A DNA stretch of 64,000 nucleotides. Origin: Cyclobacteriaceae bacterium. Its GTDB lineage: Bacteria; Bacteroidota; Bacteroidia; Cytophagales; Cyclobacteriaceae. The notes under the pieces were generated by a model that was not told the DNA's origin, ran no database searches, and saw nothing but the letters and a program-made list of their open reading frames with translations. Below, piece by piece: positions 21,523-60,379 of this stretch (positions within the stretch are counted from its first letter, which is position 1; every line of letters begins with the position of its first letter). The DNA is taken from contig JAHBUC010000005.1 of NCBI GenBank assembly GCA_019638275.1, forward strand, positions 111,149-175,148. Reading direction: 5' to 3'. Both the position numbers and the translations under genes were made by a program.

Positions 21523-22926
21523 ATGTCTGTTTTTACCAAAGCAGGTTCGTTATTTCGTTTATTCAAACAAGCCCTCAAAGGCGAGGAGCACAGCTACACC
21601 TCGGGCAGTATCGACAAAGCCATTTTTATGCTGTCGATACCGATGATCCTCGAGATGTCGATGGAGTCGCTGTTTGCCATTGTAGATGCATTTTATGTTA
21701 GCCGCCTGGGCGTTGATGCCCTCGCCACCGTTAGCCTTACCGAATCGGTGCTCACGTTGGTGTATTCCATCGCCATCGGGTTGAGCATGGGCGCTACCGC
21801 GATGGTGGCGCGCAGGGTAGGTGAGGGCAACGTGCCCGAAGCCGCCCGCTCCGGTGTGCAGGCCATTTATTTAGCCACCGGCATTTCGTTACTCATTTCG
21901 GTGGTGGGGTTGTTCTTTGCCGAGAACATTCTCGCGCTCATGGGTGCCTCACAGTCGGTGATCGACACCGGTGCGGGTTACACGCGCTGGATGCTTGGCG
22001 GCAACATCACCATTATGCTCATCTTTTTGATCAACGCCATCTTTCGCGGAGCAGGCGATGCCTCGCTGGCCATGCGCGTGTTGATTCTTTCAAACGGACT
22101 CAACATCGTGCTCGACCCGATTTTTATTTTTGGCTTTGGCCCCATACCTGCGTTTGGTGTGGAAGGTGCCGCCATTGCCACCACCATTGGGCGTGGTGTG
22201 GGTGTGGTGTACCAGCTTGCGCATTTGCTGTATGGCAAAGGACTGATTAAAGTTCACCGGCAAAACCTGCCGATTGATGTTGGATTGATCGGGCGACTGA
22301 TCAAAGTTTCTGCCGGTGGAACGGGGCAGTTCATCATTGCATCTGCGAGTTGGATTTTTCTCGTGCGCATTGTGTCAACCTTTGGCAGCGAAGCGCTGGC
22401 GGGTTACACGATAGCGATACGCGTAATTGTGTTTGCCATATTACCTGCGTGGGGCATGGCCAATGCTTCGGCCACGTTGGTGGGGCAAAACCTGGGTGCA
22501 GGTCATCCCGACCGGGCCGAGCGCTCGGTGTGGCGCACAGGTTTCTTCAACATGGTGTTTATGGTATTTGTAACCATTACGTTTTTAACACTGGCGCGAC
22601 CCATCGTTGAATTTTTTACCACCGATGCGGCCGTGCTACACAACGCCATACAGTGTTTGCAGATTGTAGCGCTGGGCTACGTGTTTTATGCGTACGGCAT
22701 GGTGGTGGCGCAATCGTTTAATGGTGCGGGCGATACGCGCACGCCCACGTTGCTGAATTTTGTTGCCTTCTGGATGTTTCAGATCCCGCTGGCGTATGCG
22801 TTGGCCATTGGGTTTAACCTGGGGCCGATGGGCGTGTACGTGGCCATTGTAGTGGCTGAGTCATTGTTGGCGGTGGCGGGTATTCTCATTTTCCGCAGGG
22901 GTAAGTGGAAGACGGTGAAGATTTAG
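21523..22926 (+). CDS. MATE-family multidrug efflux transporter
   Basis: 467 aa, about 12 TM helices, typical MATE N-terminus (PMILEMSMESLFAIVDAFYVSRLG). Confidence 0.9.
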   Translation: MSVFTKAGSLFRLFKQALKGEEHSYTSGSIDKAIFMLSIPMILEMSMESLFAIVDAFYVSRLGVDALATVSLTESVLTLVYSIAIGLSMGATAMVARRVGEGNVPEAARSGVQAIYLATGISLLISVVGLFFAENILALMGASQSVIDTGAGYTRWMLGGNITIMLIFLINAIFRGAGDASLAMRVLILSNGLNIVLDPIFIFGFGPIPAFGVEGAAIATTIGRGVGVVYQLAHLLYGKGLIKVHRQNLPIDVGLIGRLIKVSAGGTGQFIIASASWIFLVRIVSTFGSEALAGYTIAIRVIVFAILPAWGMANASATLVGQNLGAGHPDRAERSVWRTGFFNMVFMVFVTITFLTLARPIVEFFTTDAAVLHNAIQCLQIVALGYVFYAYGMVVAQSFNGAGDTRTPTLLNFVAFWMFQIPLAYALAIGFNLGPMGVYVAIVVAESLLAVAGILIFRRGKWKTVKI

Positions 22927-23007: not shown

Positions 23008-23166
23008 GTACATACCGTAGGAGTTACTCCTATGCTGATTCAGTAAACAGAAGCGGTTTTTTGTCTTTGAGTTTTGAAAAAGCTGGGATTGGGGTAAATT
23101 CAATAGTTCGAATTGGAATATACTCATTGAGTACATTCACCAGCCAGCCATTTAATCAAGAGAATT

Positions 23167-24045
23167 ATGTACGTTAAAGCAATTGAAGATGCAGACAGAT
23201 ATACAAGGCCCATTCATACAATTGTCAGGACCTATGGTGGGTTAATTAGCCCTGTGACATCAACGTTATTTTTTGTAAATGAAAGTGGCGTGGCCATTAC
23301 GTGTAAGCATGTTTTATAGTTAATAATCCAAGCTGATAAAATCAATCTTGACTTTAGTAATTTTAGAACAGAAAGGAACAAGTTGCCAAGAGATGGGAAA
23401 TTCAAAAGAAAGCTAATAGAGCTTGAAGAAAAGTATAAATACAAAAAGGAAACTGTTGTTCAAATTAAAAACAATTTTGTTAACTGTTTTGACAAGATCA
23501 CTAACTTCCAATGGCACCAACATTCAACACTTGATTTAGCAATAATTGAGTTTAAAGGCCAATCTCAAAATTTATATAGTTCATATGCTACATTCGTAAA
23601 TGATCCAGATAAAGTAAAACAAGGGCGTAGCTTATGTAGACTTGGATATCCATTTCCAGAGTTTAATAATTTTAAACACAATACCATTACTGACGACATT
23701 GAGTGGACAACCGAGGGAAACCTAATAAGCCCTAAATTTCCAATAGATGGAATGATTTCGAGATTTGGAGTTAATAATGGTCTCCTTTCGACTATCGAGT
23801 TAAGCACCCCTGGGCTTCGCGGACAAAGCGGTGGGCCTTTATTCGACTCTGATGCCCTTGTTTATGGAATGCAGTTCATGACAAGTCATTTGCATTTAGG
23901 GTTTGATATAAGAGATAAAGAAGTGATAAGTGATGGAAAAAGAACAAGGGTGTCAAACTACCCATTTTTGCACGTTGGACATTGTATACATGTCGATAGA
24001 ATAAAAGAGTTTCTTAGACAACATAGTATTAAATTCTACGAGTAA
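23167..24045 (+). pseudogene. Cytoplasmic trypsin-fold serine peptidase interrupted by one in-frame TAG (23317-23319)
   Basis: The frame from ATG 23167 reads MYVKAIEDADRYTRPIHTIV...GVAITCKHVL* and continues in the same frame into the 23383-24045 ORF. His (TCKHV), Asp (LDLAIIEF) and Ser (GLRGQSGGPLFD) are all present. No signal peptide. Confidence 0.7.
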
Positions 24046-24113
24046 TAACTGACTGGAGTTTGTTTTTCTTCTGATGTTTCGAATTTAATTGATGCGCAAT
24101 TTTAAATTCTAAT

Positions 24114-25943
24114 ATGTTTGATAAAGCATACAAGACAGTACAAGAATTCACTTTTCCACTCATAATAATCGCGAGATTTTATGATAAACGGGTGGTGGCA
24201 GAAGTAGGAAATTTTATCTTATTAAATAAAGATGGCTGGTTAATGACGACAGCTTATCACTTTCGTTATATAAGCTTGTATAAAAAACACAAAAGTGAGA
24301 TTGAAGAATATCAAATTAAGTCAAAATCTCTCTATTCGCGAAAGAGAAAATCTAAAAGGCAACAAAAGAAATTGTTGAAGTTGCAAATCAGTAAAGACTG
24401 GATAACTCATTACGATATTTTATTTGGCGGGATTAATATGGGAATAAAAGAGTATTATGTGTTTAGTGAGCATGATCTCGCATTAGTTAGGGTTGATCCA
24501 AAATATTTTGATAGAGTTGAAATTTACCCCAGTATAAGAGGTTCATCATCTCTCAAGCCTGGAATTAAACTATGTAGAATTGGGTACGTGTGTACTGAAC
24601 TAAATATTTCATTTGACGAATCAACAAATAAGTTCAGTATTAATGAGCTACCCCGACTATCGAGGTTGCCAATTGATGGAATATATACACGGAATGTCAT
24701 CGCTGGAAAATCGAGAGATGGAAACGAAATAGTTTATATAGAGACTTCAACATCTGGTTTGGCGGGACATGAGGGTTGCGCAATTGTTGATGAGGATGGT
24801 AATATTTGCGCAATTCATTCAAGTAACTTAGAAGTGTCTGTTGGACTTATTGGTATTCATGATAAAAAGCAGAAATTAGGTAATTCTCATTTGACAGGGA
24901 TTGGAGTTCATTCGAAAACAATAACAAAGCTATTAAGTAGTTGTGGAATAGACTTTAAGCTGACGGGTGAAACAGAACCATTGGAAAGTGAGATATTCAC
25001 TCCTGATGAAAGCGGAAAAGTGAAAATGACTTTAAAGGTTGATAATGAAGACCCGAAAGAGAGTAGCGAGAATAAATTTCTTATAGGCTCATTTAAAAGT
25101 GTTTTTATTGACTTTGGATTGTGCTTGTGCGCCTTTAAGAATTCAGAGTATATTCCTTCCGGAACAGCTGTAATGGTAGGTCCATGTTTAGCAATGACTG
25201 CGCGTCATGTTGTTGAGGATTTTCTGCGCGTTTTTGATGGTAAGAAATATTTTGAAGGCAATCCCAAAAAAGACACTGGGACATTTAGCACGATGGTCAT
25301 AAATCCTAAATCTGAAGCGAAGTGGGCCGTTCAACAATTTTATTTTTTAGTAGAAGGGGTAGATGTAGCATTCTTAAAGCTTGCTCCTCAAAATCAAATG
25401 GCGAAAGATAGGGTTAATATATTTGCAACAATTGATTTAAGCATGCCAAAGATTGGGGATAAGATTTTTGCTTTCGGTTTCGTTGATACACAGACTATTG
25501 CAGAAAAAAAGTCCGAGGATCATATATCATTTGGTAATGGAATGTCAAGATCTTTGGCTTACTCTGAGGGTGTTGTTAAAGAGGTTCATCAACAGTATCG
25601 TGATCTGAGCAGACTTAAGTTTCCTTGCTTTCAAACTAATGCCAGATTTGATGGTGGTATGAGCGGGGGGCCTGTTCTTAACGAAAACGGAATCGTTATT
25701 GGGCTAGTTTGCTCGAACCTTCCCCCATCATCAATTGAAGAAGAACATGTTTCGTACGTGTCACTCCTATGGTCATCAATGTTGATTTCTATTTCTTTGC
25801 CGTTCCCTGAATTTGAGCTTGATAAGGATTATCCAGTTTTATTTTTGGCAAAGCACAAGATTATTAATGTAATTGGTTGGGAGAAGTGCTTTTTGGAGAA
25901 GAATGACTCAGGAAAGTTTGTTATTGGTTTTAGATTGGACTGA
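24114..25943 (+). CDS. Two-domain trypsin-fold protein: N-terminal pseudo-protease (Ser to Glu) plus an intact C-terminal serine protease domain
   Basis: The N-terminal domain is paralogous to the upstream gene (TTAYHF / HDLALVRV / GLAGHEGCAIVD, Glu codon at 24771-24773 where Ser is expected). The C-terminal domain has MTARHV, DVAFLKL and DGGMSGGPVL. No signal peptide. Confidence 0.75.
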   Translation: MFDKAYKTVQEFTFPLIIIARFYDKRVVAEVGNFILLNKDGWLMTTAYHFRYISLYKKHKSEIEEYQIKSKSLYSRKRKSKRQQKKLLKLQISKDWITHYDILFGGINMGIKEYYVFSEHDLALVRVDPKYFDRVEIYPSIRGSSSLKPGIKLCRIGYVCTELNISFDESTNKFSINELPRLSRLPIDGIYTRNVIAGKSRDGNEIVYIETSTSGLAGHEGCAIVDEDGNICAIHSSNLEVSVGLIGIHDKKQKLGNSHLTGIGVHSKTITKLLSSCGIDFKLTGETEPLESEIFTPDESGKVKMTLKVDNEDPKESSENKFLIGSFKSVFIDFGLCLCAFKNSEYIPSGTAVMVGPCLAMTARHVVEDFLRVFDGKKYFEGNPKKDTGTFSTMVINPKSEAKWAVQQFYFLVEGVDVAFLKLAPQNQMAKDRVNIFATIDLSMPKIGDKIFAFGFVDTQTIAEKKSEDHISFGNGMSRSLAYSEGVVKEVHQQYRDLSRLKFPCFQTNARFDGGMSGGPVLNENGIVIGLVCSNLPPSSIEEEHVSYVSLLWSSMLISISLPFPEFELDKDYPVLFLAKHKIINVIGWEKCFLEKNDSGKFVIGFRLD

Positions 25944-25951
25944 ATTACACC

Positions 25952-26045
25952 CATCAACGTCACTCGCTGGAGGGCGTTGATGTTTTGAATTTTTATGTGT
26001 TCGTTGCCTCAACGTCCCCTTCGGGTGACATTGAGGTGGTTGAAG
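25952..26045. repeat. Hairpin repeat element, copy 1 (full length)
   Basis: catcaacg...cgttgatg palindrome followed by cctcaacgtccccttcgggtgacattgagg (26007-26036). Confidence 0.8.
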
Positions 26046-26087
26046 TAAATGTAAAGTGAAAAGCCTGCCATTACCCACATTTTAAAA

Positions 26088-26363
26088 ATGACAAAAATTG
26101 AACAAATATTATTCGGACTCGCTGTTAGTGGTGGAATTGGAGTAGCGTTGAGTGCCCTTATTTATTGGGATACGATAATGATTTTCTTTTGGCTGACAAA
26201 CATGTCATTGATAACTTTAATGATTTACTACATAGCTACCATAGATAAGTCATTGTGGACAGTAGTAATTGCTTTAATGATTTTGCGGACAATTGGATAC
26301 ATGTTTGGTGTTTTGCAATCTTCGTACAAGGACTTTTGTACTTGCATCCTGATCATAATATGA
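26088..26363 (+). CDS. Small membrane protein (91 aa, about 3 TM)
   Basis: Hydrophobic ORF. Its stop overlaps the start of the next small ORF (ATATGA). Confidence 0.45.
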   Translation: MTKIEQILFGLAVSGGIGVALSALIYWDTIMIFFWLTNMSLITLMIYYIATIDKSLWTVVIALMILRTIGYMFGVLQSSYKDFCTCILIII

Positions 26364-26524
26364 CATTTGCCGGTAGACTGATGAATATTCTAATTGTGGG
26401 TATTATCGGGACAATAAAGCTTAAGAATATAAGGAGTACTTTAGGACTTGATAAAATATTAAATCTATTTCTTGCACAAGGATTAATAACAGTATCCTTT
26501 GACACAATAGGGCTATTGAAGTGA
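26360..26524 (+). CDS. Small membrane protein (54 aa), translationally coupled to the upstream ORF
   Basis: MTFAGRLMNILIVGIIGTIKL... begins at the ATG 26360-26362, which overlaps the TGA at 26361-26363. The longer 26255 start in the track overlaps the upstream ORF and is less likely. Confidence 0.35.
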   Translation: MTFAGRLMNILIVGIIGTIKLKNIRSTLGLDKILNLFLAQGLITVSFDTIGLLK

Positions 26525-26550: not shown

Positions 26551-26598
26551 ATTCGTTTCCTCAACGTCCTCTTCGAGTGACATTGAGGGGGTTGAAAG
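26551..26598. repeat. Hairpin repeat element, copy 2 (3' half only)
   Basis: attcgtttcctcaacgtcctcttcgagtgacattgagggggttgaaag. Confidence 0.8.
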
Positions 26599-26808
26599 AG
26601 TTGTCCTGAAAATGTGGAGCTTACAGTTTGGGTTACATAGTATACAACGTTAAAGACACACAGCACTGTATAATTCAAGTAACAGATTAAACGGTCGCAG
26701 ATAATTCACAAGTTTTTTCTATCTTCGTTTGTGGTGGGTAGTTTTTCGATTTTAGATCCGTTACTGGATTTATGCAAACCGTTGTTGTAATTCATTAAGA
26801 ACCAAATT

Positions 26809-27705
26809 ATGAGAAACAGAATTTTATTGTTTTTGTTATTTCCAATAGGTTTAATTAATGCTCAAGGTCGCCTTAATTCTCAACCTGGATATAATCCAAT
26901 CTACCCAAAATTGATTAGTATGATGCATTCATACGATGCGTCAACTCAATTAGGTAAAAAGAACAAGTTTACTTTGGAGCAGTTTAATTCTAAAGAGAAT
27001 TATCAACAAATAGAAATCTACTTCTGCTATGAACTGGATTCTACACTTGAGAAAATGGGAGAAACCATTTATTTCCATCCTCCCAAACAATTAATGGATT
27101 TTTACGTCATTCATCATTATAATTACCGGTTGAATTTAAATTCAGCTCCATTTTTCTCTGATGATGAAATAAAAATCCCGGAAATAACTGTTCCGACTCA
27201 TACTTTCATTAAAGACATTCAAGCTCAATATTACTATTTAAAAAACGGGAAACTTCGCTTACAAAAAATTAAAAAAAATGAAATTCTTCCCAAAATTTCA
27301 CAAGAGAAATTAGTTATCAGGATTAATACCATTAAACCTGCTGTTTCATATATTGAAATTGACATTAAACTGAAATCAAGAAATTTTGAAGACATCAATC
27401 CAATGATTGTCCAGGACATTGAAAATATTGATTGCTCGATTAGAATACCTAAAATATTTGAATATGAAATTACATCATCTGAAAATGTAGTAATTGAAGA
27501 TGAGAAATTTAAAATGTTAAAATTTTATAGAAACACTACTAACTGGGATAAAATGATTGAGGCTTTTGATATTGGCCTTAAATCTTATTCTTGGAATGTA
27601 TCAAAAGGCACTTTTTTAACTCCTAAGTTAAAACTGAAAAAGATAATGTATCCAATTGGCTCTGACATCGGGTTTCCTATTGAATATTTAGTGCAATCAG
27701 AATAA
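26809..27705 (+). CDS. Secreted hypothetical protein
   Basis: Signal peptide MRNRILLFLLFPIGLINAQ; 298 aa; Asn/Lys/Ile-rich; no motif recognised. Confidence 0.6.
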   Translation: MRNRILLFLLFPIGLINAQGRLNSQPGYNPIYPKLISMMHSYDASTQLGKKNKFTLEQFNSKENYQQIEIYFCYELDSTLEKMGETIYFHPPKQLMDFYVIHHYNYRLNLNSAPFFSDDEIKIPEITVPTHTFIKDIQAQYYYLKNGKLRLQKIKKNEILPKISQEKLVIRINTIKPAVSYIEIDIKLKSRNFEDINPMIVQDIENIDCSIRIPKIFEYEITSSENVVIEDEKFKMLKFYRNTTNWDKMIEAFDIGLKSYSWNVSKGTFLTPKLKLKKIMYPIGSDIGFPIEYLVQSE

Positions 27706-27844
27706 ATATAGCGAATTGCAACATAATGCATAAAGGCACAGTTGGTAGGTAGTTTTTCAATGCTTTGTACGCATGAGTTCCTCCGCCAATCCTTGGATTG
27801 CCTTGAATCGTTTGAAAAGCAAAAATTAAAATGACGACTTGACT

Positions 27845-27918
27845 AGAGGGCGTTGATGTTTTGAGTTTTTATGTAATTCGTTTCCTCAACGTCCCCTTCG
27901 GGTGACATTGAGGGGGTT
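27845..27918. repeat. Hairpin repeat element, copy 3
   Basis: agagggcgttgatgttttgagtttttatgtaattcgtttcctcaacgtccccttcgggtgacattgagggggtt is near-identical to copy 1. Confidence 0.8.
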
Positions 27919-27983
27919 AGGATAAATTTTGCTTTCATTTTTACCTTTTGGCCAACGGATGTGTCTAAAGGAAAAAGAAAATT

Positions 27984-28634
27984 ATGAAACGACTCATTCA
28001 ATTTCCGGCATGGATACTCACAGGGCTGACATTATTGGTTTCCTGTGAGCGGCAGGAAGGGTTGCCAAAGCTACAAGTATGCAGTAGCAAGTATGTTTAC
28101 TATAACACAGGCGACTCAAAGGTATATTTAAGGCAATCGTTAACTGAAATATGGATTGTGTTTGCGCAAGAGGAAATCACGAAAGAGGAAGCTGAGTTGA
28201 TTCTGAGCAAATACACCTTTTTAGGAATGACTGGGTTGGCGAGTAGCTACAAGCAGGTTGGTGTGAGAATAAATGAAAATGTTACGGATTGTACAATTGT
28301 TAATAATTACCTGAGCGTGCTGAATGAGGATGAAGCAATTTTTTCGGCCACACCCGTGTTTTACTATTCCGCCACCGACCCGAACTCCTATTTTATCCTG
28401 TTAAGTGAAGTGCTCACAAAGAATAACGAGAGCCTTATCTCGGAATCTGATTTTATAGATTATGCGGAGTCGATGAATCTGGAGTTGGTTGAAGCAAAAT
28501 ATGCGACACAATATTTTAGAGTAAAAGAAGTAAAAACAGGGTTTGAAGCTTTGGAGATTGCCAACCAGATTTATGAAAGCGGAAAAGTTGAATATGCCCA
28601 ACCTAATGGCATAGTGAAAGTTGAGCCTCATTGA
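27984..28634 (+). CDS. Lipoprotein, unknown function
   Basis: Lipobox LTLLVSC; 216 aa. Confidence 0.6.
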   Translation: MKRLIQFPAWILTGLTLLVSCERQEGLPKLQVCSSKYVYYNTGDSKVYLRQSLTEIWIVFAQEEITKEEAELILSKYTFLGMTGLASSYKQVGVRINENVTDCTIVNNYLSVLNEDEAIFSATPVFYYSATDPNSYFILLSEVLTKNNESLISESDFIDYAESMNLELVEAKYATQYFRVKEVKTGFEALEIANQIYESGKVEYAQPNGIVKVEPH

Positions 28635-29705: not shown

Positions 29706-30542
29706 ATGAGTGATATAAAACTATTTGAAGCCAAAAAAGTAAGAACGCAGTGGGATGACGAAAAGGAACTTTGGTATTTCTCCATTATTGATGTTATCCA
29801 GATACTGACTGGAAGCAATAATCCGAGAAGATATTGGAGTGATTTGAAAAGAAAACTTGAACAAGAGGGCTTTAGTCAGTTGTACGATATTATCGTACAA
29901 CTGAAATTAGAGTCTAATGATGGTAAAAAGTATCTGACGGATTGCACTGACACCCAAGGGCTTTTGCGCATAATTCAATCAATCCCCTCGCCAAAGGCTG
30001 AACCCTTTAAACAATGGTTGGCTCAAGTGGGCTATGAAAAAATCGAAGAAACCGAAAATCCCGAACTGAGTTTTGACCGCGCCATGGAAACCTACCTGGC
30101 AAAGGGATATTCCAAGGAATGGATTAACCAGCGGCTTAAAAGTATTGAAGTCAGAAAAGAGTTGACCGATGAATGGGAAAAGCGGGGTGTAAAAAGAGGA
30201 CTGGATTTTGCGGTGCTCACCGACATCATTACCAAAGCATGGAGTGGCAAAACCGTTAAAGAATACAAAAAGCACAAGAGCCTGAAAAAGGAAAACCTTC
30301 GGGATCACATGACCAACCTGGAGTTGGTATTAAACATGTTGGCCGAGGCCACTACAACTGAAATCTCGAAAGAGAAAAAGCCCAATACGTTTGACGAAAG
30401 TAAAGTGGTAGCCAAACAAGGCGGAACCATAGCCGGGAACACCCGAAAGGAAATTGAAGCCAAGACCGGAAAGAAGATTGTGAGCAAGCTCAATGCGAAA
30501 AAAATTATTGCCGGTAAACCGAAGCGGAAAAGGTTGAAGTAA
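29706..30542 (+). CDS. Bro-N domain protein (phage antirepressor-like) with a Lys-rich C-terminus
   Basis: N-terminus FEAKKVRTQWDDEKELWYFSIIDVIQILTGSNNPRRYWSDLKRKL...GLLRIIQSIPSPKAEPFKQWL is typical Bro-N. Confidence 0.75.
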   Translation: MSDIKLFEAKKVRTQWDDEKELWYFSIIDVIQILTGSNNPRRYWSDLKRKLEQEGFSQLYDIIVQLKLESNDGKKYLTDCTDTQGLLRIIQSIPSPKAEPFKQWLAQVGYEKIEETENPELSFDRAMETYLAKGYSKEWINQRLKSIEVRKELTDEWEKRGVKRGLDFAVLTDIITKAWSGKTVKEYKKHKSLKKENLRDHMTNLELVLNMLAEATTTEISKEKKPNTFDESKVVAKQGGTIAGNTRKEIEAKTGKKIVSKLNAKKIIAGKPKRKRLK

Positions 30543-31056: not shown

Positions 31057-31722
31057 ATGTTAAAATTTTACAATTTTGCATTGATGAACTCCGTTGAGCA
31101 AATCCGACAGTACGCGCATCAGCCCCTTACACACCAACTTTTGGTTTCGCTGCTTAAATCGTTCAAACAGCCAAACGATAAGATTTATAAGTTGATGCGC
31201 GATGGATTAATTATACCCATAAAAAAGGGACTCTACATCGCGGGCAACATCCTAAATGCGGGGAGGCCAGATCCTTTTCTGTTGGCCAATCACATGCTTG
31301 GTCCAAGCTATGTTTCGATGGAAACAGCCTTGGCCTATTATGGTTTCATACCTGAGCGTGTGCACGAAATTGCATCTGTTACCACCAAAGCATCAAGAAC
31401 GTTTGATACAAGGGTTGGAAAATTCACCTACACGCGTGCTCCTTTACCGTATTACACGTTTGGTATTCAGCGCATCATGTTGTCTGATGATCAATATGCT
31501 CTGGTAGCATCACCGGAAAAAGCTATTTGTGATAAGATAATCACAACATCGGGGTTGTTGTTTCGTAGTAGAAATTCGGCAACCGAATTTCTGATTGAGA
31601 ATATGCGTATGGATGAGGAGAAGCTGAAGGAACTCGACCTGGATGAAATGGAAACCTGGGTGGCACAATCTCCTAAAGCAGAAAGTCTGCAAATGGTTAT
31701 TCATGCAATTAAGGAATTATGA
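31057..31722 (+). CDS. AbiEi-family antitoxin / transcriptional regulator (type IV TA)
   Basis: AbiEi-like N-terminus (LLVSLLKSF..PNDKIYKLMRDGLIIPIKKGLYIAG). 4-nt overlap with the AbiEii gene. Confidence 0.75.
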   Translation: MLKFYNFALMNSVEQIRQYAHQPLTHQLLVSLLKSFKQPNDKIYKLMRDGLIIPIKKGLYIAGNILNAGRPDPFLLANHMLGPSYVSMETALAYYGFIPERVHEIASVTTKASRTFDTRVGKFTYTRAPLPYYTFGIQRIMLSDDQYALVASPEKAICDKIITTSGLLFRSRNSATEFLIENMRMDEEKLKELDLDEMETWVAQSPKAESLQMVIHAIKEL

Positions 31723-32573
31723 TTAAAGAATGGCTTGCTGAATACAACCCCGCCAATAAAAATGAGGCGCACACTGCCCTACGTGAAATTATGCAGGAAG
31801 TAGCCCTGGCAGGATTATACAGATCGGGGTTTTTCGAAAAGGCAGCTTTCTATGGAGGAACTGCGCTTCGTATTTTCTACAAGCTTGATCGTTTTTCTGA
31901 AGACCTTGACTTTTCTTTATTAGAGCCCAATCCTAATTTCTCGCTTGATCGGTACATGGTAGCAATTCATGACGAGTTTGAGTCACTGGGGATGGAGGTT
32001 TCCATCAAGGACAAAAAGAAAACTAAAGAAAGCCAGGTTGAATCTGCTTTTCTGAAATCGGAAACGCTTTGGAAAGAATTGATACTGGAGAGCATGTTAC
32101 CACAGACTGGATTGAACCAACCGGTAAACATTACGATTAAGATTGAAGTTGATACCCTTCCTCCTGGGGGATTTGAAACGGAGGAGAAATTGTTACTGAA
32201 ACCTTTCTCGTTCTACGTAAAGTGCTTTTCACTTCCATTTCTTTTTGCCGGAAAAATGCATGCTTTACTTTTTCGAAAGTGGAAGAACAACGTAAAAGGT
32301 CGTGACTGGTATGATTTGGAGTGGTACATTAAGAACAAAGTGTCCATGAGCCTCGCTCATTTTATAGAACGCGCTAAATCAAGTGGTGATTTGCTTACGC
32401 GTTCTTGTTCAGAAGAAACAGTAAGGGAGTTGTTGTCAGAAAAAATAGAAACCATAGACTTTGAGAGGATGAAGGCTGATGTTATCCGATTCATACCAGA
32501 TAGTCACAGGCTGGATTTATGGTCTCCAAAATATTTTCATGACCTGGCTTCACATTTACTGATAACACCGTAG
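31719..32573 (+). CDS. AbiEii/AbiGii-family nucleotidyltransferase toxin
   Basis: FYGGTALRIFYKLDRFSEDLDFSL nucleotidyltransferase motif and K..ALL.R....GRDWYDL motif. Confidence 0.85.
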   Translation: MIKEWLAEYNPANKNEAHTALREIMQEVALAGLYRSGFFEKAAFYGGTALRIFYKLDRFSEDLDFSLLEPNPNFSLDRYMVAIHDEFESLGMEVSIKDKKKTKESQVESAFLKSETLWKELILESMLPQTGLNQPVNITIKIEVDTLPPGGFETEEKLLLKPFSFYVKCFSLPFLFAGKMHALLFRKWKNNVKGRDWYDLEWYIKNKVSMSLAHFIERAKSSGDLLTRSCSEETVRELLSEKIETIDFERMKADVIRFIPDSHRLDLWSPKYFHDLASHLLITP

Positions 32574-33779: not shown

Positions 33780-33923
33780 ATGAAAAGTGCCGTGTTGCTT
33801 AAGCGAATTTCCATTGTTTTGATCATGCTGGCCGCCATGCTGTTTACAGATTGCGCCTCACAAAAAAAGCATAAGCGCCTGAAGCCCGGCAAGCCCATTC
33901 CTTGTCCGCAAAAAGACTGCTGA
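33780..33923 (+). CDS. Small lipoprotein (47 aa)
   Basis: Hand translation: MKSAVLLKRISIVLIMLAAMLFTDCASQKKHKRLKPGKPIPCPQKDC*. Its TGA overlaps the cmk ATG (ATGA-type coupling). Confidence 0.4.
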   Translation: MKSAVLLKRISIVLIMLAAMLFTDCASQKKHKRLKPGKPIPCPQKDC

Positions 33924-34624
33924 TGAACCTGAGTAAGATTGTTATTGCGATAGACGGATACTCCGCCTGTGGTAAAAGCACCACGGCCAAGGAGGTAGCG
34001 AAAATATTGGGTTACCGCTACATCGATTCGGGCGCCATGTACCGGGCAGTTACGTTGTATTTTCTCGATCACCACGTAGCGCTCACCAACCCGAAAGAAA
34101 TTCATCGTGCGCTGCAGCAGATCAACATCTCTTTTAAAATAAATGCTAAAGGCATAACCGAAACGTTCCTGAACGGACTGAGTGTGGAGGAAGAGATCCG
34201 CCAGATGCGTGTGTCAGAACAGGTGAGCCCGGTGAGCGCCATTAAAGAAGTGCGTGAAGCTATGGTGGCGCAACAGCGCAAACTGGGTAAAGAAAGAGGC
34301 ATTGTGATGGATGGCCGCGACATCGGCACCGTGGTATTTCCGCAAGCCGAGCTAAAACTGTTTATGACAGCCGATATGATGGTGCGGGCCTTCCGCAGGC
34401 AGCGCGAGTGGTTGGATCAGGACAGGCTGGTTGACCTGGATGATGTGGTTGAGAACATCAAAAAACGTGATCTTATTGACACCACACGGGCAGAAAGTCC
34501 GCTACGCCAGGCCGAGGATGCCGTGGTAATCGACACCACGCACATCACCATCGATGAGCAGGTGGATGAGGTGGTTCGGATGGCCTTTTCGAAGATTGTT
34601 TCGATGCGAAAAACCACCCGCTAA
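33923..34624 (+). CDS. cmk: Cytidylate kinase
   Basis: P-loop IAIDGYSACGKSTTAKEVA, YIDSGAMYR, GIVMDGRDIGTVVFP. Start taken at MNLSKIV. Confidence 0.9.
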   Translation: MNLSKIVIAIDGYSACGKSTTAKEVAKILGYRYIDSGAMYRAVTLYFLDHHVALTNPKEIHRALQQINISFKINAKGITETFLNGLSVEEEIRQMRVSEQVSPVSAIKEVREAMVAQQRKLGKERGIVMDGRDIGTVVFPQAELKLFMTADMMVRAFRRQREWLDQDRLVDLDDVVENIKKRDLIDTTRAESPLRQAEDAVVIDTTHITIDEQVDEVVRMAFSKIVSMRKTTR

Positions 34625-45753: not shown

Positions 45754-46161
45754 ATGAAGTCATTACTTTATGAGCACCTAGTAAAGGCAGCTTATAATAC
45801 GGAAAGGTATGGAGCGCGTGGGAAAGCGGATGCCAATGTGTATAGAGATATGGAGCATGCTTTACGTGAAGTTGAGCTCCAAAAGGAAGCAATCAAAAAA
45901 GGTCAGATGCCTATATCGACAAAGTCGATTGAAGACCTTGAGTACGAAGCCAGAGTTTATATTGCTAAGGTTCGGGGTAATGTATCTGCGGCAATAAGTG
46001 AAGCTTTACGAAATACAAATCTCAAATATTCATCCGAGGAGATAAAGCAGAATTTAAAAGGTCTTCAATCCAAACTTAACATCAATGAATATAACAAGGA
46101 TGTGATAGATAATGTAATTTCTGAAGTTTGGGACATATTTAGGGAGAACAAATTGGCTTAG
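45754..46161 (+). CDS. Hypothetical helical protein
   Basis: 135-aa ORF from the ATG at 45754 (the track gives a TTG start at 45706). No motif recognised. Confidence 0.45.
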   Translation: MKSLLYEHLVKAAYNTERYGARGKADANVYRDMEHALREVELQKEAIKKGQMPISTKSIEDLEYEARVYIAKVRGNVSAAISEALRNTNLKYSSEEIKQNLKGLQSKLNINEYNKDVIDNVISEVWDIFRENKLA

Positions 46162-46258
46162 GTCGAGTTGCATTAAGCCTTCTCACTTTATCCTGATAGC
46201 GAAACAATTTTTCTTGAAGGAATTTGCACCATATAAATTCTTATTAATAGAATTGAGC

Positions 46259-47068
46259 TCAATCCTCCCAAACCACACTCAAACCAAAGTCATAATCACG
46301 GATGTAGTTGCAGTATTCAAGCATTACAGGATTGTCCTGCGGGTGGGTTAAGAACCAGGTAGATTTGTCAATCTCCTGAAGAGTTTCTAATGACTTATTT
46401 GATTTGAAAAATTGACCCATCACCGAATCTGGTGGTGGTGGTAAGTTAGAAGTTATCCGGAGTTTATACTTTGTCCATCCGGGAATAAACTCGTGGTCAG
46501 CAGACTCCATACTCTGCGATAATTTCCACCATTTTATTTTGTTTTTTTTCGTTGCGATAACACACACAGGATGGACATTAGCCTTCAGTATTTTTAGGAT
46601 AATGGCTGTATGTGTAACCTGAAAGGTTTCCGCTAATTGCTTGATAAGCTGTGGCCCAAACTTTTTCCCCTTGCACTCCTGAATGAATAAATGTGTTGGC
46701 ATCAACAGCTCGGAAGCAAAGTCGTTAGCTTCCTTTTCGTGGCTACCGGATTGATACCAATTGCAAAGCTCATATTGGGTATCCGCAGGTGGTTGGATGT
46801 TTTTATGTAATTCAAAATGCCCAAGTTCATGGGCTGCAGTGAACCGCTTTTTTCCCGTCCCGACAATATTCTTATTAATGGAGATGACTGATTTCCCATT
46901 GAAGGTAACAATTCTCCCATCCATGCTGTCGAGCTCTACCTCTTCATAATAAGCTCCCCTTGCCTGAATAATAGTTTGCAATTCTGTAGACGTAATAATC
47001 CCGATTTCGTTGAGCCCAAACTCGGAAAGTATTTTTTTTGCTGTGGCTTCAGCTTTCGAGAGAAGCAT
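46259..47068 (-). CDS. ImmA/IrrE-family zinc metallopeptidase with a C-terminal domain of about 150 aa and unknown function
   Basis: FTAAHELGHFELH (HExxH) followed by EKEANDFASELLMP, the usual ImmA/IrrE (DUF955) signature. Confidence 0.8.
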   Translation of the reverse strand: MLLSKAEATAKKILSEFGLNEIGIITSTELQTIIQARGAYYEEVELDSMDGRIVTFNGKSVISINKNIVGTGKKRFTAAHELGHFELHKNIQPPADTQYELCNWYQSGSHEKEANDFASELLMPTHLFIQECKGKKFGPQLIKQLAETFQVTHTAIILKILKANVHPVCVIATKKNKIKWWKLSQSMESADHEFIPGWTKYKLRITSNLPPPPDSVMGQFFKSNKSLETLQEIDKSTWFLTHPQDNPVMLEYCNYIRDYDFGLSVVWED

Positions 47069-47076
47069 AACGTGTA

Positions 47077-47472
47077 TTACCCTTCATTTTGTTCATTTTG
47101 ATATTTAAGAAGAAAATAACGCTCCAGAAATTCCCGTATTTCAGTTTCATTCATTGTTTCAAAATTTCGGTAGGCAAGGTTGATGTTATTGGTTTTAAGA
47201 AATTGGCCAAAGTCAAACTCGCTGCTCAATAGTTTGTCAACTTCTGATTTCGCACGTTGAAGGAGATTTTTTCGAAGTTCAAGGAAATTCTTCTGGGTTG
47301 ACTCAGCCTCAAGCTTCATCCTGATTCTTTTAATCTGCAGTAAGGTTTCATTAACCACTTGATCCGGGTCAAGTCCGGCCTCACGAAGTGTATTTTCGGA
47401 TTCCTGATCTGATGAATGATACAGGCAGTATTCATCAATTAATTTAATCAGTTTTTCATCAGCGCTTTTCAT
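47077..47472 (-). CDS. Hypothetical helical protein (middle gene of the ImmA operon)
   Basis: 131-aa ORF with 8-nt and 15-nt gaps to its neighbours on the same strand. Confidence 0.5.
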   Translation of the reverse strand: MKSADEKLIKLIDEYCLYHSSDQESENTLREAGLDPDQVVNETLLQIKRIRMKLEAESTQKNFLELRKNLLQRAKSEVDKLLSSEFDFGQFLKTNNINLAYRNFETMNETEIREFLERYFLLKYQNEQNEG

Positions 47473-47487
47473 ATCTTTTCTTGATTA

Positions 47488-48099
47488 CTATTTATTAAGT
47501 ATTTTCTTGACTATTCTCATGAACCTACGACTGCCATTGTTAAAATCATCAATACTGATGCCGAATTCCTTGCAGATACCCATTCGATTTGAAAGACTGA
47601 AATCATGAATGCAGACAGCGGTATAAATCTTTTTTACTACCTCGTCATCCTTTAGCGCATTTTCAATACTCTTAAGCATGATATCTCTATCGATTTTGGA
47701 AGAATCATTGACCGGAAAATTTCGTAATACTTCTTCCGGATGCTGGTGTGGAGTACTAATTAGGTGATTCTCTTCTAAAGACTCAAGGAAGGTTTTCCTT
47801 TCCTTTCTTTGGTATGGAAGTAAGTCATTATAGATTGATCTTCTAACCAGGCTCCTTAGAAACATCTCGTGTTCTAATGTAGTAATATAAAGCTGATCTT
47901 TTACACGGAGATATCGCTCAATAGCATCGTATACATAGTCCTTATAGCTTTTTCCCCGTTCATTTATTTCCCGCTTGTACAGAATTTTATATTGACTGTA
48001 TGCAAAGGCATATAAATTTCGAAGTATTCTGGCTCCATCTGTAGTGTCAAATTGAATTCGATCCATCTTACAATAGTATAATGCTAACGAACAGGTCAA
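47488..48099 (-). CDS. Hypothetical protein with a C-terminal HTH-like segment (possible sigma-like/regulatory)
   Basis: The C-terminus GICKEFGISIDDFNNGSRRFMRIVKKIL looks like a helix-turn-helix. The likely true start is MDRIQF (ATG 48066-48064). The sigma-like call is inference only. Confidence 0.45.
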   Translation of the reverse strand: MTCSLALYYCKMDRIQFDTTDGARILRNLYAFAYSQYKILYKREINERGKSYKDYVYDAIERYLRVKDQLYITTLEHEMFLRSLVRRSIYNDLLPYQRKERKTFLESLEENHLISTPHQHPEEVLRNFPVNDSSKIDRDIMLKSIENALKDDEVVKKIYTAVCIHDFSLSNRMGICKEFGISIDDFNNGSRRFMRIVKKILNK

Positions 48100-48282
48100 A
48101 TATTACCATCTGGATTGAAAAATATTTGAAAATTTCCTTATTCAAACCATAAAGCTCAGATTTTTTAAATTTTTTAGGGCAGTATGGTAACATTCATGGG
48201 TCTTGTTAGCAATAAGCATGTGTAGGCATAAAATCAAACATGCCTAATTACCTAGTTCCTATTGTTTAACAAAATCTATTCT

Positions 48283-56902: not shown

Positions 56903-57511
56903 TTAAACTTTTCCTTTTACGATCTTACTAAAAATGAACTCAAAGTATAGTTCCAGGTATTCTTGATCATCAATCTTCTTGGAATCCTTACCTAATGTGT
57001 GTTCAAATACTTTTTTAAACTCATTTAAGAATTTAATAGTTGAGCTTGTTGCTGTGGTGTTCAATCGCTTAATGCTATTAGTTTCTAGATTTCTCCTATA
57101 CTCTGGATCTCGGATAATAAATTCATAAATTTTACCTTCACCGTAGAGGCCAAGAATATAGATAATCGTTTTTATCCACTCAGCCTTTTTTGTGATATCA
57201 TCCTTCATGGATTTTGGTGGTATATTTTTACCCAAAGTGATATATCCTTCTGGGTTTTTGTTTAAGTACTCATTTGATTGTAGAAATAATAAGGAATAAG
57301 AGATCAGTGGAAAATAGGGTCCAGTGTAGTCGATACTAAAGGAGTACATGTGAAATGGGTTTTTGTTTCTTTCATGCCTGAATGAGTACAATACACTAGA
57401 AAAATAGAGGATTCTTGAAATTGTTTGTTCTTTAATTCTTCGCCACCCCATTTCACTTGCTGATGACAACACCGATAGGATATCAAAATTAATATCGTAT
57501 ATATCAATCAT
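56903..57511 (-). CDS. 202-aa helical protein (middle component of the ATPase operon)
   Basis: Its start overlaps the ATPase stop by 4 nt, and its stop lies 3 nt before the next start. No catalytic motif. Confidence 0.55.
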   Translation of the reverse strand: MIDIYDINFDILSVLSSASEMGWRRIKEQTISRILYFSSVLYSFRHERNKNPFHMYSFSIDYTGPYFPLISYSLLFLQSNEYLNKNPEGYITLGKNIPPKSMKDDITKKAEWIKTIIYILGLYGEGKIYEFIIRDPEYRRNLETNSIKRLNTTATSSTIKFLNEFKKVFEHTLGKDSKKIDDQEYLELYFEFIFSKIVKGKV

Positions 57512-59535
57512 TGGCGTGAAATCTTTGATTTTAATTTTCTAGTCAACTGTTGCAACAAATCATTCATTCGTTTATTATCCATTTGAATTTGCGATCGCTT
57601 CCCTATTTGCAATAAATTTACGTAGTTGATACTTTCTGCCTTATCAATAATATATTGTAAAAACTCACTGTTGTTAAGATTGGAAGTAATAATAAGCGCG
57701 TTGGGTTTTTTTAAGTAATTCAAGAATACATTAGCAGCGTTTCGTTCGTAAGACATATCCAAACTACTGTCTGGGGTCTCACATATATAAAAGGATGGAG
57801 ATCTGTAAAAGAAATCGAGCAGGCTCATTCTATATGAATGATCAATGAAGAATCTCTGCGATTCTGATAATTGCATTTGATTTAGTCTTTCCTTTCCATT
57901 TATAATCGGGACAAATCGTTTCCCTAGACCATCTTTGAAATCATCATAAGTGAGTTTACAAGGAATGCCAAGAAATTTCTCAGCATATTCAGAAAATTTC
58001 TGCGATAGCTGCGTGGCAATTCTGATGTTTTCATTTTCAATTTTCTGTGAAATTCTCTCAACCTTTTCTTTTTCCTTTTTGCTGCGGGCAAGCAAGGCCG
58101 TTTTTTCACTTTCTAACTTATTAATCTCGGCTCGCATAGCATTAAACTCCACTGATCCTTTATCTTTTGTTTGCTTCTTATTCTGCGTGTGCTCAAGCGC
58201 CCACAATTCAGATTTTTTGGTAAACAAATCATTACTCAATTCTCTATATTTTTCTTCAAAAAGATCAATCCTCTCATCAATTTTACTTATTTCGGATTGT
58301 TGTTGTTGTATTTGTATACTCAGTGGCCTTAATTCTTTTTGAAGTTCTCCAAGATCAAATGATGGATTTCTTCTATAATTCAATGGTTGTTCACATACAA
58401 AACAGTGATCATCGTGAGTAGTTAATTGTTTGTGCTTTTTCTCTGGAAGCACTTTGTTACACATTGGGCAGTGACGACTAATCCTGATAAGGTCATGATG
58501 AATTTTATAAGATGGATTTACCTGTTCCCAGATCTGTTTATTTTCTTCAAACTCCGCTTTTGAAATTTTAGCTTCAATGATTTGTGCATCCTTAAGATTA
58601 CTGTTTAATTGATTGCTTAAGATGTTTCTTCTAGATGCGAGGGCTTCTTTCTGCTTATATATGGAATCCAACCCCGAGTTAAGACGTTGAATATCCTTGT
58701 TTAGTCTTGATACCTCTTTGGCTAAATCTTTGACTGATTTGCTAGCGTCATCATTAGTTTTTATTTTTTCAATAACATTCTCAATTGCACGAATGTCTTC
58801 CGATTTATGACGATATAAGCTGTCGAGATACTTTGCCTGATCCTTAGCCTTTTGACGTTCAATATCCAATTCTGGATCATTCCAATATTTACTTGATAGA
58901 TCTTCAACTATTCTTTGATCCTTATTATCATCCCAAAGAATAGTTTTATGACTTTCTTCAAATACTAATATTGTTGTAACGAAGAAAATTATATCATCAA
59001 AGCTTCCAAGATTTGCACATTTGGCGGCTTTGTCTTCAAATTTCTTTTGAAGAAATGCTTTCTTTTCTTCGTTGTCTTCTATCGCCTCATATTCTTCTTG
59101 AGTAATTATTTTCCCGGTTAAGTAGTCTGATTGGCCTTTCTCTGTAATCTTGACTTTCTCTAGAATGAAATCTTTAAGTTTTCGCGTTACTTCAAACGTA
59201 GTGTCACGAATTTTAAAAACAACAGTAATTTTAGCAGCATCATTTTTTTCATAACTAGCATCCATGCGATCTGCAAAAAAATCAGATGGATAAACTCGTC
59301 TCTTGATTATTTGACGCTCTAGATAAGTTCTGCGGTGTCCATATCGTTCAGCGTACCCACCAATTATACCGTATTTTAAGAGATTGATAAATGTTGTTTT
59401 ACCTAACCCATTTCCTCCGAAAATGATATTTACTCCATTGACAAATTTGTATTCGTAGTCAAGACCATTCGGGTAGAGGCTAAAGTCTTTAATTTTGATT
59501 GACTTCAACGTAGGTAAGAATATTTCGTTCATCAT
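57508..59535 (-). CDS. ABC/SMC-like ATPase with a long coiled-coil insert and a central four-Cys zinc ribbon
   Basis: Walker A GGNGLGKTT (K46), signature-like LSESQ, Walker B/D-loop SFYICETPDSSLD. About 300 aa of heptad-rich sequence separates the head halves. CPMC-N19-CFVC lies at aa 356-381. Confidence 0.8.
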   Translation of the reverse strand: MMNEIFLPTLKSIKIKDFSLYPNGLDYEYKFVNGVNIIFGGNGLGKTTFINLLKYGIIGGYAERYGHRRTYLERQIIKRRVYPSDFFADRMDASYEKNDAAKITVVFKIRDTTFEVTRKLKDFILEKVKITEKGQSDYLTGKIITQEEYEAIEDNEEKKAFLQKKFEDKAAKCANLGSFDDIIFFVTTILVFEESHKTILWDDNKDQRIVEDLSSKYWNDPELDIERQKAKDQAKYLDSLYRHKSEDIRAIENVIEKIKTNDDASKSVKDLAKEVSRLNKDIQRLNSGLDSIYKQKEALASRRNILSNQLNSNLKDAQIIEAKISKAEFEENKQIWEQVNPSYKIHHDLIRISRHCPMCNKVLPEKKHKQLTTHDDHCFVCEQPLNYRRNPSFDLGELQKELRPLSIQIQQQQSEISKIDERIDLFEEKYRELSNDLFTKKSELWALEHTQNKKQTKDKGSVEFNAMRAEINKLESEKTALLARSKKEKEKVERISQKIENENIRIATQLSQKFSEYAEKFLGIPCKLTYDDFKDGLGKRFVPIINGKERLNQMQLSESQRFFIDHSYRMSLLDFFYRSPSFYICETPDSSLDMSYERNAANVFLNYLKKPNALIITSNLNNSEFLQYIIDKAESINYVNLLQIGKRSQIQMDNKRMNDLLQQLTRKLKSKISRQ

Positions 59536-59734
59536 TTAAGAGAATTAGGCTTCAAGAAAGGCATTACTATCTCAATATAGTCAAGGTATGCTAATTAATA
59601 AATCAAATGCTGCATAAAAATATTTAGAGATACCAAGTCATAGCATATTTAATAGGAGTTTTTCCTACATAGGATAGAGAAATTTATATTTACCTCAGGT
59701 TGAGTAAATGTTTCTTGTAAAATATTCTTGATGA

Positions 59735-60379
59735 CTATTTTCCAGAGCTAACCTTCAACAACCCATTCCTATGAAAATACTCTACCAGCTCAATTGAATT
59801 TGAAACATTGAGCCTTTTGATTAGGCGGTGCCTGTAGGTTTCGGCAGTCCGGACAGAAATCGCAAGTTCTTCAGCGATAGATTCGCTGGAATACCCCTGA
59901 CTGAGCAGCTCGACCAGTCTTAACTCAGTCTCCGAAAAATCGAGGCCGAAAGACACTTCCTTTTTAGCATCGATATACTCGCGCATTTTTGGGCAGATAT
60001 AGCTTCTCCCCTTCATTACTGCCTGAATGGCCTTGACTAGTATCTCAGGATCGTCACCTTTAGTAACAAAGCCCTTCACACCAAGCTGAACAAGGCCATT
60101 CACCAGGGCATGACCATCAAACATGGTGTTTGCAATAATCCGGGTATTCTCATCTTGTTCTAAAAGAATTTTGGCTGTTTCATAGCCGTTAAGTTCTGGC
60201 ATTGAAATGTCAAGGAGAAACAAATCAATCGGGCACTTTTTTGCCAGGTTAATCACTTCGACACCATTCGATGCCTCGTAAACCTTGGAAGCAACCTTGG
60301 TGATTTTCAAAAAAGTAATGATGCCTTTTCTGACCAGCGCATGGTCATCGGCAACGAGAATAGTAATACGGGCAGGCAT
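59735..60379 (-). CDS. NarL/LuxR-family response regulator (no adjacent kinase)
   Basis: REC domain (ILVADDH, DLFLLDISMPELNG) plus a LuxR HTH (LSQGYSSESIAEELAISVRTAETYRHRL). Confidence 0.9.
   Translation of the reverse strand: MPARITILVADDHALVRKGIITFLKITKVASKVYEASNGVEVINLAKKCPIDLFLLDISMPELNGYETAKILLEQDENTRIIANTMFDGHALVNGLVQLGVKGFVTKGDDPEILVKAIQAVMKGRSYICPKMREYIDAKKEVSFGLDFSETELRLVELLSQGYSSESIAEELAISVRTAETYRHRLIKRLNVSNSIELVEYFHRNGLLKVSSGK

Follow-up and report, generated by a model that had tools for sequence, protein, structure and literature searches.

A single open reading frame (ORF) in the genome of a Cyclobacteriaceae bacterium (assembly GCA_019638275.1, contig JAHBUC010000005.1) encodes a dead serine protease domain of one S1 family joined to a probably live domain of another. 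The ORF occupies positions 24114 to 25943 of the plus strand (stop codon included) in the window, that is, the whole stretch of 64,000 nucleotides (nt) that was analysed, and encodes 609 amino acids (aa). Judged from its sequence, this is the gene of a single strain, and both of its domains are predicted to be cytoplasmic. The reading that we favour, and to which we give about an even chance, is that the protease–pseudoprotease fusion is maintained, that its dead domain serves as a regulatory module in cis, and that the gene is part of an accessory, conflict-related cassette.

A dead and a probably live protease domain in one reading frame

The ORF is real by translation, with matches in Pfam and phmmer, and is divided into three parts, all read on the plus strand. 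These are an N-terminal pseudoprotease domain comprising residues 1–287 (24114..24974), which has an HtrA-like S1 core; an acidic linker of ~32 residues (288–319; 24975..25070), placed between the two family folds by the ends of the family alignments; and a C-terminal domain spanning residues 320–609 (25071..25940), defined by Pfam Trypsin_2, family columns and a structure model. Family alignment and model also delimit the N-domain and, within it, a helical Lys-rich insert (residues 47–89). The linker contains an internal ATG (Met305, 25026..25028), a candidate start for a C-domain-only product, which sits ~15 residues ahead of the usual start of the C-domain's family. Pfam assigns the 609-aa ORF to Trypsin_2 (E 2.1e-20, two stretches, best 350–531), with Trypsin in addition, and the Trypsin_2 score over residues 350–531 is 74.4 bits against a curated cut-off of 27.6; no PDZ family is among the hits at E<=1. 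The two halves are only remotely similar (24% identity over 139 columns, E 0.001). A probably active and a degenerate protease domain are thus found within one ORF, as in the CspBA type described below. The preliminary description of this DNA had proposed a pseudoprotease joined through an acidic linker to an intact trypsin-fold domain, both lacking a signal peptide, and this architecture is borne out.

Relatives were collected with phmmer from 1.84 billion representative proteins, which gave 1799 hits at E<=1e-3, and the 149 non-self proteins of the top 150 were sorted by matched region. Forty match residues 1–~290 alone and are called the N family here; the other 109 match ~315–609 alone and are called the C family.

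The N-domain is catalytically dead, and by more lesions than the replacement of the nucleophile. Tyr48 (TAT, 24255..24257) occupies the catalytic His column, where 40/40 family representatives have His, and a displaced His follows one residue later (His49). Glu220 (GAG, 24771..24773) occupies the Ser column, which is Ser in all 39 of the 40 representatives that reach it (one is truncated). The GGP motif that follows the Ser in ~98% of N-family members is GCA, so that GLRGQSGGPLFD has become GLAGHEGCAIVD at the nucleophile motif, as had been noted from the first; a degenerate pattern of the GLAGHEGCAIVD motif gave 0 matches in a metagenome scan. The His motif, which had been described as shared with the gene upstream, is not: the upstream gene has the His. 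Only the Asp of the His–Asp–Ser triad remains, as Asp121.

Further changes accompany these. Measured over 121 relatives, 51 columns are >=85% conserved and the N-domain keeps 33 of them; each of the 116 other full-length members keeps at least 35 (median 49). The losses concentrate at residues 144–260, around the nucleophile loop, and residues 1–140 are nearly intact save for H48Y. At 1.15 substitutions/site (median 0.40), the terminal branch of the domain ranks second in length among 120 in a FastTree phylogeny. The Tyr48 codon is one base change from His; the Glu220 codon is at least two changes from any Ser codon, so the loss of the Ser is not a fresh single hit. The domain nevertheless scores 329 bits against the N-family profile (positions 1–290). 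A search among shorter proteins for closer relatives found none, the best being just 34–37% identical.

The C-domain, on the other hand, keeps all 12 columns that are invariant across 42 sequences, including H365 (25206–25208), D417 (25362–25364) and S517 (25662–25664), as well as 37/40 columns with >=85% conservation, of which other members keep a median of 38 and never fewer than 35. It is probably an ordinary and active member of its family.

The two domains were folded separately, since the combined alignment set N-family rows on the C-domain at 11–18% identity. With family alignments, AlphaFold2 returned a predicted local distance difference test score (pLDDT) of 92.1 and a predicted template-modelling score (pTM) of 0.87 for the N-domain, and 91.6 and 0.91 for the C-domain. 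In the N-domain model the Lys-rich insert forms helices at 47–74 and 81–89. The family consensus shows the insert to be an N-family-wide feature, lying directly after the catalytic His, the position of the regulatory loop LA in HtrA proteins. The best structural matches are DegS, Deg2, Deg1 and HtrA3 (Z 20.3–20.7, root-mean-square deviation (rmsd) 2.6–3.4, 183–194 residues), Foldseek against HtrA-type cores gives E about 1e-9, and an N-family cluster in the Atlas is matched at a template-modelling (TM) score of 0.87. The pseudoprotease domain of MamO follows at rank 25 (Z 16.6, rmsd 3.6, 181 aligned residues). Although the HtrA/DegP/DegS proteins (MEROPS S1C) are thus the nearest in structure, the ORF differs from them in having no PDZ domain, no signal peptide, NCBIfam scores below cut-off and a dead domain. 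For the C-domain the top Foldseek matches are the V8/Esp glutamyl endopeptidases and Spl proteases (both S1B), then HtrA; for V8/Esp/Spl, E is 4e-11 to 1e-9 and TM by target 0.70–0.75. Those enzymes are secreted, carry pro-peptides and are 12–18% identical, whereas the C family is signal-free (0/109) and has an additional C-terminal beta-strand region.

Several observations hint that the dead domain is preserved as a protein, under purifying selection. At 34% GC its 290 codons contain 0 stops; across 2000 shuffles the mean was 24 and no shuffle was free of stops, and the other two frames of the ORF contain 42 and 78. In addition, a variant of 24153–24414 (262 nt) is present on public metagenome contigs (~3x depth, from two runs of one sample) and shows 36 differences, 30 of them listed. 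These 30 fall in 28 codons, 18 synonymous and 10 non-synonymous. With 48.7 synonymous and 209.3 non-synonymous sites, pS is ~0.37 and pN ~0.05–0.06, a ratio of ~0.1, which is still ~0.2 if all six unlisted differences are non-synonymous. It is in the helical insert (residues 71–75 and 83) that the non-synonymous changes are concentrated. The variant also changes the displaced His49 to Gln, with no listed change at Tyr48; the displaced His would therefore be dispensable, and the catalytic His was probably lost before the alleles diverged.

Two families of stand-alone proteases and the gene upstream

Both families consist of ~290-aa single-domain proteins (the 149 span ~230–350 aa, apart from a few that are longer). 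One of the longer ones, the 567-aa C-family representative P0012, has an extra ~290-residue C-terminal region after its protease domain. Neither family is named: NCBIfam and PHROGs hold nothing above cut-off for either, and their Atlas clusters are anonymous "Trypsin_2 domain" proteins. The NCBIfam HtrA-type models reach 15–30 bits against cut-offs of 250–720 (the HtrA/DegP/DegS equivalog at best 20.4 against 450), and the MamO model 16.8 bits against 800, on the C-domain. What surfaces here are two very large, unnamed families of signal-peptide-less Trypsin_2 proteases in bacteria and archaea; the N family alone has at least 533 confirmed matches in species-representative genomes.

Signal peptides were called by a heuristic that looks for a hydrophobic 12-mer. 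The 609-aa query has no signal-like N-terminal segment by this measure, and the heuristic flags 4/40 N-family and 4/109 C-family representatives. The only real signal among these belongs to P0026, an N-family protein with a lipobox; the remaining three N-family and four C-family sequences are core beta-strands. The Met1–Phe2 start of the N family is conserved at 96–97%. Both families thus appear to be cytoplasmic, which argues against their being ordinary secreted HtrA-like proteases, the outcome that had been named as telling against the earlier interpretation (signals in 1/40 N and 0/109 C representatives).

Immediately upstream lies another N-family member, which is broken (23167..24045, plus strand). 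It consists of a 50-codon piece with the His motif and a 220-codon piece with the Asp and GQSGGP, in one frame, as seen in the read-through translation and the profile matches. The break is an in-frame TAG at 23317..23319, after TCKHVL, which aligns with GAG (Glu) in an intact 309-aa orthologue (L002:1462–2391, 48% identical) from genome G035, so that one base change made the stop. The N-family profile matches both pieces, and the genome search reports 1 TAG inside the match. The TAG is read from the assembly, the sole metagenome contig over it starting 5 nt before. What had been described simply as the upstream gene is not intact. It follows that the genome, whose only N-family copies are the dead domain and this broken gene, is without a catalytically competent N-family member.

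The similarity between the two is far beyond chance: residues 1–281 match the entire upstream frame by BLASTP (22% identity, E 6e-10), and the alignment first described, including the Lys/Arg/Glu-rich insert, the Asp motif and LCR(L/I)GY, is confirmed. Its interpretation as a paralogue fusion by local duplication is rejected, as the two sequences, 22% identical, lie in different branches. An 8-row clade (support 98) unites the N-domain with N-family proteins of Bacteroidota, the best of them 38.8% identical; the upstream gene pairs on a separate long branch (support 100) with the orthologue from G035, which belongs to another family of the same order.

Elsewhere, the two families do not lie side by side. 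No N-family ORF was found within up to 6 kb at 47 C-family loci, several of which are short contigs, and none of 80 N-family loci has a second N gene; one of the 80 has a C-profile ORF (L124, E 7e-9, a collagen-repeat plus Trypsin_2 protein). Neither family occurs in 24 same-genus genomes, and among 16 same-order genomes of other families the N family is found in one and the C family in none. In G035 the orthologue of the upstream gene stands alone. The outcome that the first description had named as refuting it, no co-occurrence outside this genome, is thus what is seen, and a conserved two-gene system is not supported.

The N family shows lineage synteny in Methanomassiliicoccales and some Cytophagales, with no partner conserved across lineages. 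In many Methanomassiliicoccales genomes (loci L073–L129) the genes upstream of it encode a 168-aa unknown protein, a radical-SAM enzyme and a YgjP-like metallopeptidase, and the recurrence suggests a core role there.

No neighbour gene is conserved for the C family either; the next largest cluster is made of antisense ORFs over the gene itself (5 loci). Its neighbours (81 ORFs scanned of 131 picked at 40 loci, with no control set) are roughly half without a Pfam family, and the rest mix housekeeping, mobile and conflict types. The mobile types are an ISL3 transposase, two integrases and a serine recombinase, and the conflict types a SMODS/DncV-like CD-NTase, ImmA/IrrE, DUF2726, DUF2971, HSDR_N, PIN and LexA. 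As far as gene content tells, these surroundings lean towards "accessory". C-family members are all but missing from phage and plasmid collections, which yielded 1 and 8 weak hits, respectively. Its closest homologue (53% identity, locus L004, from an Aquaticitalea metagenome-assembled genome) is convergent to genes for a 222-aa unknown protein and a SMODS/DncV-like CD-NTase, an arrangement that is CBASS-like (L004 5036–7575).

Explanations for the fused gene

In the reading that we favour, the protein would be one cytoplasmic polypeptide in which cleavage falls to the live C-terminal domain. The dead HtrA-like domain would be tethered through the acidic linker to a live domain of the other family and would most likely serve, in cis, for binding, scaffolding or gating without catalysis of its own. 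In this way it would decide what the live domain cleaves, or when. We infer this regulatory role, and any function in defence; the dead domain may be a decoy, a sensor or an inhibitor, as was first suggested.

The location of the gene enters here. GC is 0.32–0.38 across 23–28 kb and 0.51–0.54 at 21–23 kb, so the AT-rich island first described is real. It lies between genes for a MatE transporter (21523–22926) and cytidylate kinase (cmk, 33902–34624), both assigned by Pfam. Three congeners have a MatE–cmk gap of 0.7–1.4 kb; in the window it is ~11 kb, as also in a sister genome, G001, whose MatE is 97% identical. G001 shares with the island, at 78–90% DNA identity, a membrane gene, a DUF998 gene, part of a Bro-N gene and everything from 30555 on, including an AbiEi/AbiEii pair (31057..32573, plus strand; PADLOC AbiEi E 6.9e-73, AbiEii E 1.8e-117; Pfam AbiEii). 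The protease slot itself (23033–25943) is filled in G001 by genes for a 656-aa GHKL-like protein (weak similarity) and a 254-aa protein (locus L131, 1718–6699), followed by a 142-aa unknown, a WapI-like immunity protein, an Nmad2-domain protein and a 168-aa unknown; the genes of the slot in G001 have no PADLOC match. The slot is, on this comparison of gene content, a strain-specific variable cassette of a mosaic accessory island. Given its strain-specific nature, the hypervariability of the low-GC island and the position at the MatE–cmk hotspot beside AbiE, the gene probably has an accessory, conflict-related role, and this location suggests a part in defence.

Regulation of live paralogues by pseudoenzymes is well documented in eukaryotes and is known from a few bacterial cases (CspBA, MamO). 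The closest architectural precedent is CspBA of Clostridioides difficile, in which an active subtilase and a pseudoprotease are encoded in one ORF and the pseudoprotease is required for the system to work (10.1101/855569). The likeness is that one ORF links an active serine protease to a degenerate domain. CspBA is, however, subtilisin-like (S8) with prodomains, whereas both domains here are Trypsin_2, HtrA/V8-like (S1); its active domain comes first and its dead domain second, the reverse of the order here; and it is conserved across a bacterial family and serves spore germination, whereas the present fusion is cytoplasmic, combines two S1 families and is found in one genome. In fold the closest precedent is MamO/MamE, since the MamO domain matches the N-domain. 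MamO is described as a degenerate trypsin-like protein that is non-catalytic and promotes MamE-dependent proteolysis (PMC4794232). Unlike the single fused cytoplasmic ORF seen here, this pair consists of two individual proteins, which are membrane-associated and belong to the magnetosome island.

Cytoplasmic Trypsin_2 (PF13365) proteases are also used in phage defence, in trypsin–metallo-beta-lactamase (MBL) and nuclease–protease modules; there they either operate alongside an MBL or nuclease proenzyme encoded by the neighbouring gene, or form a fusion with a sensor or a reverse transcriptase (10.1101/2025.09.03.673762). Neither Lactamase_B nor a nuclease family was found by Pfam among the scanned ORFs of 12263–38764, and the Pfam results for the fused ORF and its neighbours contain no reverse transcriptase family. 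The RT-Protease_XI model of retron type XI in PADLOC matches the C-domain weakly (E 5.4e-9, model positions 342–486 of 506).

Several results weigh against the favoured reading. The top 150 phmmer hits include no second N+C fusion, and a two-domain relative with a summed score above ~117 bits would have entered them. A word-based search of 5.8 billion proteins of 334–1066 aa left the query alone among 7999 scored candidates, and two metagenome scans, one with the protein as query and one with a degenerate motif pattern, returned no relative of the fusion. The fusion is a singleton from one genome, so its conservation cannot be shown and the significance of the case is weakened. The selection estimate covers 262 nt of ~3x contigs from one sample, with E220, the linker and the C-domain outside it, and a second stretch (24395–24641) has 2 synonymous and 3 non-synonymous changes. 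The Atlas model of the whole protein has a pTM of 0.47, with no confident fixed arrangement of the domains. At eight inspected N-family loci the neighbours are largely housekeeping genes (chaperonin, carboxyltransferase, amidohydrolase, EPSP synthase, DEAD helicase, radical-SAM enzyme), which weakens the earlier argument from a stand-alone, cytoplasmic trypsin fold to a conflict effector. No PADLOC system covers the protease pair, in agreement with the first description, which knew of no system with this exact pair; the RT-Protease_XI models match weakly and in their protease part only. Finally, two or more genes of the island are broken, among them the upstream protease and the membrane gene, and decay could plausibly have produced the fusion by accident.

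Such decay is the main rival. Two horizontally acquired, unrelated protease genes would have come to lie side by side and the stop of the first would have been lost, leaving the N-domain as a passenger relic; alternatively, the whole ORF may be on its way out. This we regard as unlikely, yet to be taken seriously. It would account for the TAG and the deletion in the neighbouring genes, for the uniqueness of the fusion, for the genome having no intact N-family member and for the loss of 18/51 conserved positions, more than in any of the 116 relatives. In length the linker, counted as 33 codons, is also comparable to an intergenic spacer, and 5.8% of shuffles leave it free of stops. Set against this are the absence of stops from the N-domain despite its long branch, the synonymous excess relative to a natural variant already without the catalytic His, a confident fold prediction and losses that concentrate around the active-site half instead of being evenly spread. 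The fusion might instead be a single-protein abortive-infection or toxin-like effector, which seems rather unlikely. Here, a dead decoy or sensor would restrain the live protease until a phage or another trigger binds it or cuts the linker, and the freed protease would then degrade host or phage proteins. The use of Trypsin_2 proteases as defence effectors or activators, reported in the source cited above, speaks for such a role, as do the hotspot with its AbiEi/AbiEii and PDC-S13/Bro-N genes, the different content of the slot in the sister genome and the mobile or defence-type genes often found beside C-family members (the CD-NTase at L004, integrases, transposase, PIN, HSDR_N). It is disfavoured by the lack of a PADLOC match, by the absence of an adjacent MBL, nuclease, gasdermin or sensor partner among the ORFs scanned with Pfam, by the near absence of the C family from phage and plasmid records and by its neighbours, about half of which have no Pfam family and many others of which are housekeeping genes.

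A more specific form, in which the polypeptide is an immune or suicide switch whose dead domain gates the tethered live protease and releases it through the linker on infection, we consider improbable. The former active site (Tyr48/His49, Asp121, His219-Glu220-x-Cys222) could, from its residues, bind a ligand, a metal or a phage protein. To our knowledge, cis-acting protease–pseudoprotease logic has not been described for S1 proteases in bacteria, and if this reading were true that logic would be new for them. There is a slim chance, smaller again, that two proteins act in trans, the dead N-domain and a separate live protease made from Met305, with activation or targeting of the MamO/MamE kind. 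The position of the internal ATG, the activating role reported for MamO in the text already cited and the presence of its protease domain among the structural matches would fit, but there is no stop between the two parts, the Z to MamO is below that to ordinary HtrA proteases, and promoter scans are at chance level. A sigma-70-type scan gave 23 sites against 21.2 expected, and a Bacteroidota-type -33/-7 pattern gave 4 against 2.9, none near the gene. Least probable of all is an ordinary cytoplasmic housekeeping or quality-control protease that lies in the island by chance. The wide distribution of the N family, its position beside chaperonin, carboxyltransferase, amidohydrolase and EPSP-synthase genes and its synteny in Methanomassiliicoccales are in its favour. 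However, neither family is present in the 24 same-genus genomes, the gene is strain-specific at a variable hotspot, and the housekeeping-type domain is precisely the dead one. Were the favoured reading correct, a cytoplasmic fusion of a dead and a live S1 domain of different families would be a compact natural experiment in the reuse of a protease scaffold as a regulator.

Other features of the low-GC island

Downstream of the fused gene is a broken membrane-protein gene (26088..26524, plus strand). Its two small ORFs (26088–26363 and 26255–26524) match residues 1–77 and 105–188 of an intact 188-aa protein of G001, with ~130 nt missing between them. What had been described as small downstream membrane ORFs are thus the halves of one gene, and as this gene is kept in G001, which lacks the proteases, it does not travel with them. 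Genes for a 298-aa secreted protein and a 216-aa lipoprotein (26809–28634) are present in the window and not in G001. An exact 16-nt repeat encoding ESGKV is shared by the linker of the fused gene (25006–25021) and the region near the end of the lipoprotein gene (28573–28588); its rough chance expectation is ~0.01 in 11 kb, and it may be a recombination scar. The Bro-N protein (29706–30542), whose gene is partly conserved in G001, matches the PADLOC candidate PDC-S13 at full length (E 8.4e-133) and phrog_15286.

The stop codon of the fused gene is immediately followed by a two-hairpin repeat (25944..26050, plus strand), with further copies at 26552–26602 and 27843–27927. This ~100-nt element follows successive co-oriented low-GC genes, has TCAACGTC in both hairpins and shows a T-rich run behind the first of them. 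Within this genome it is confined to the island, apart from one partial copy on another contig. Rfam gave one chance-level hit on the island, and an exact search for the second hairpin in species genomes gave 0 matches. The repeat occurs at low copy number in 6/32 other congeners, often as pairs 0.6–1.3 kb apart, which flank low-GC ORFs mostly without a Pfam family (L133, L134, L135), including at the MatE hotspot of congener G041. Repetitive intergenic sequences and skewed GC between co-oriented genes are a likeness to integron and rAID-1 arrays; for rAID-1-like arrays the criteria are a tyrosine recombinase, intergenic repeats and skewed GC (10.1101/471110). The difference is that the genome has 7 Phage_integrase matches, none of them on the window's contig, C17.

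Two further observations concern the surroundings. In G041 a gene for a serpin, an inhibitor of serine proteases, adjoins the MatE gene of the same hotspot (L133 5391–6500). The window also contains a second low-GC stretch, at 46000–60000, with a GC of 0.33–0.41.

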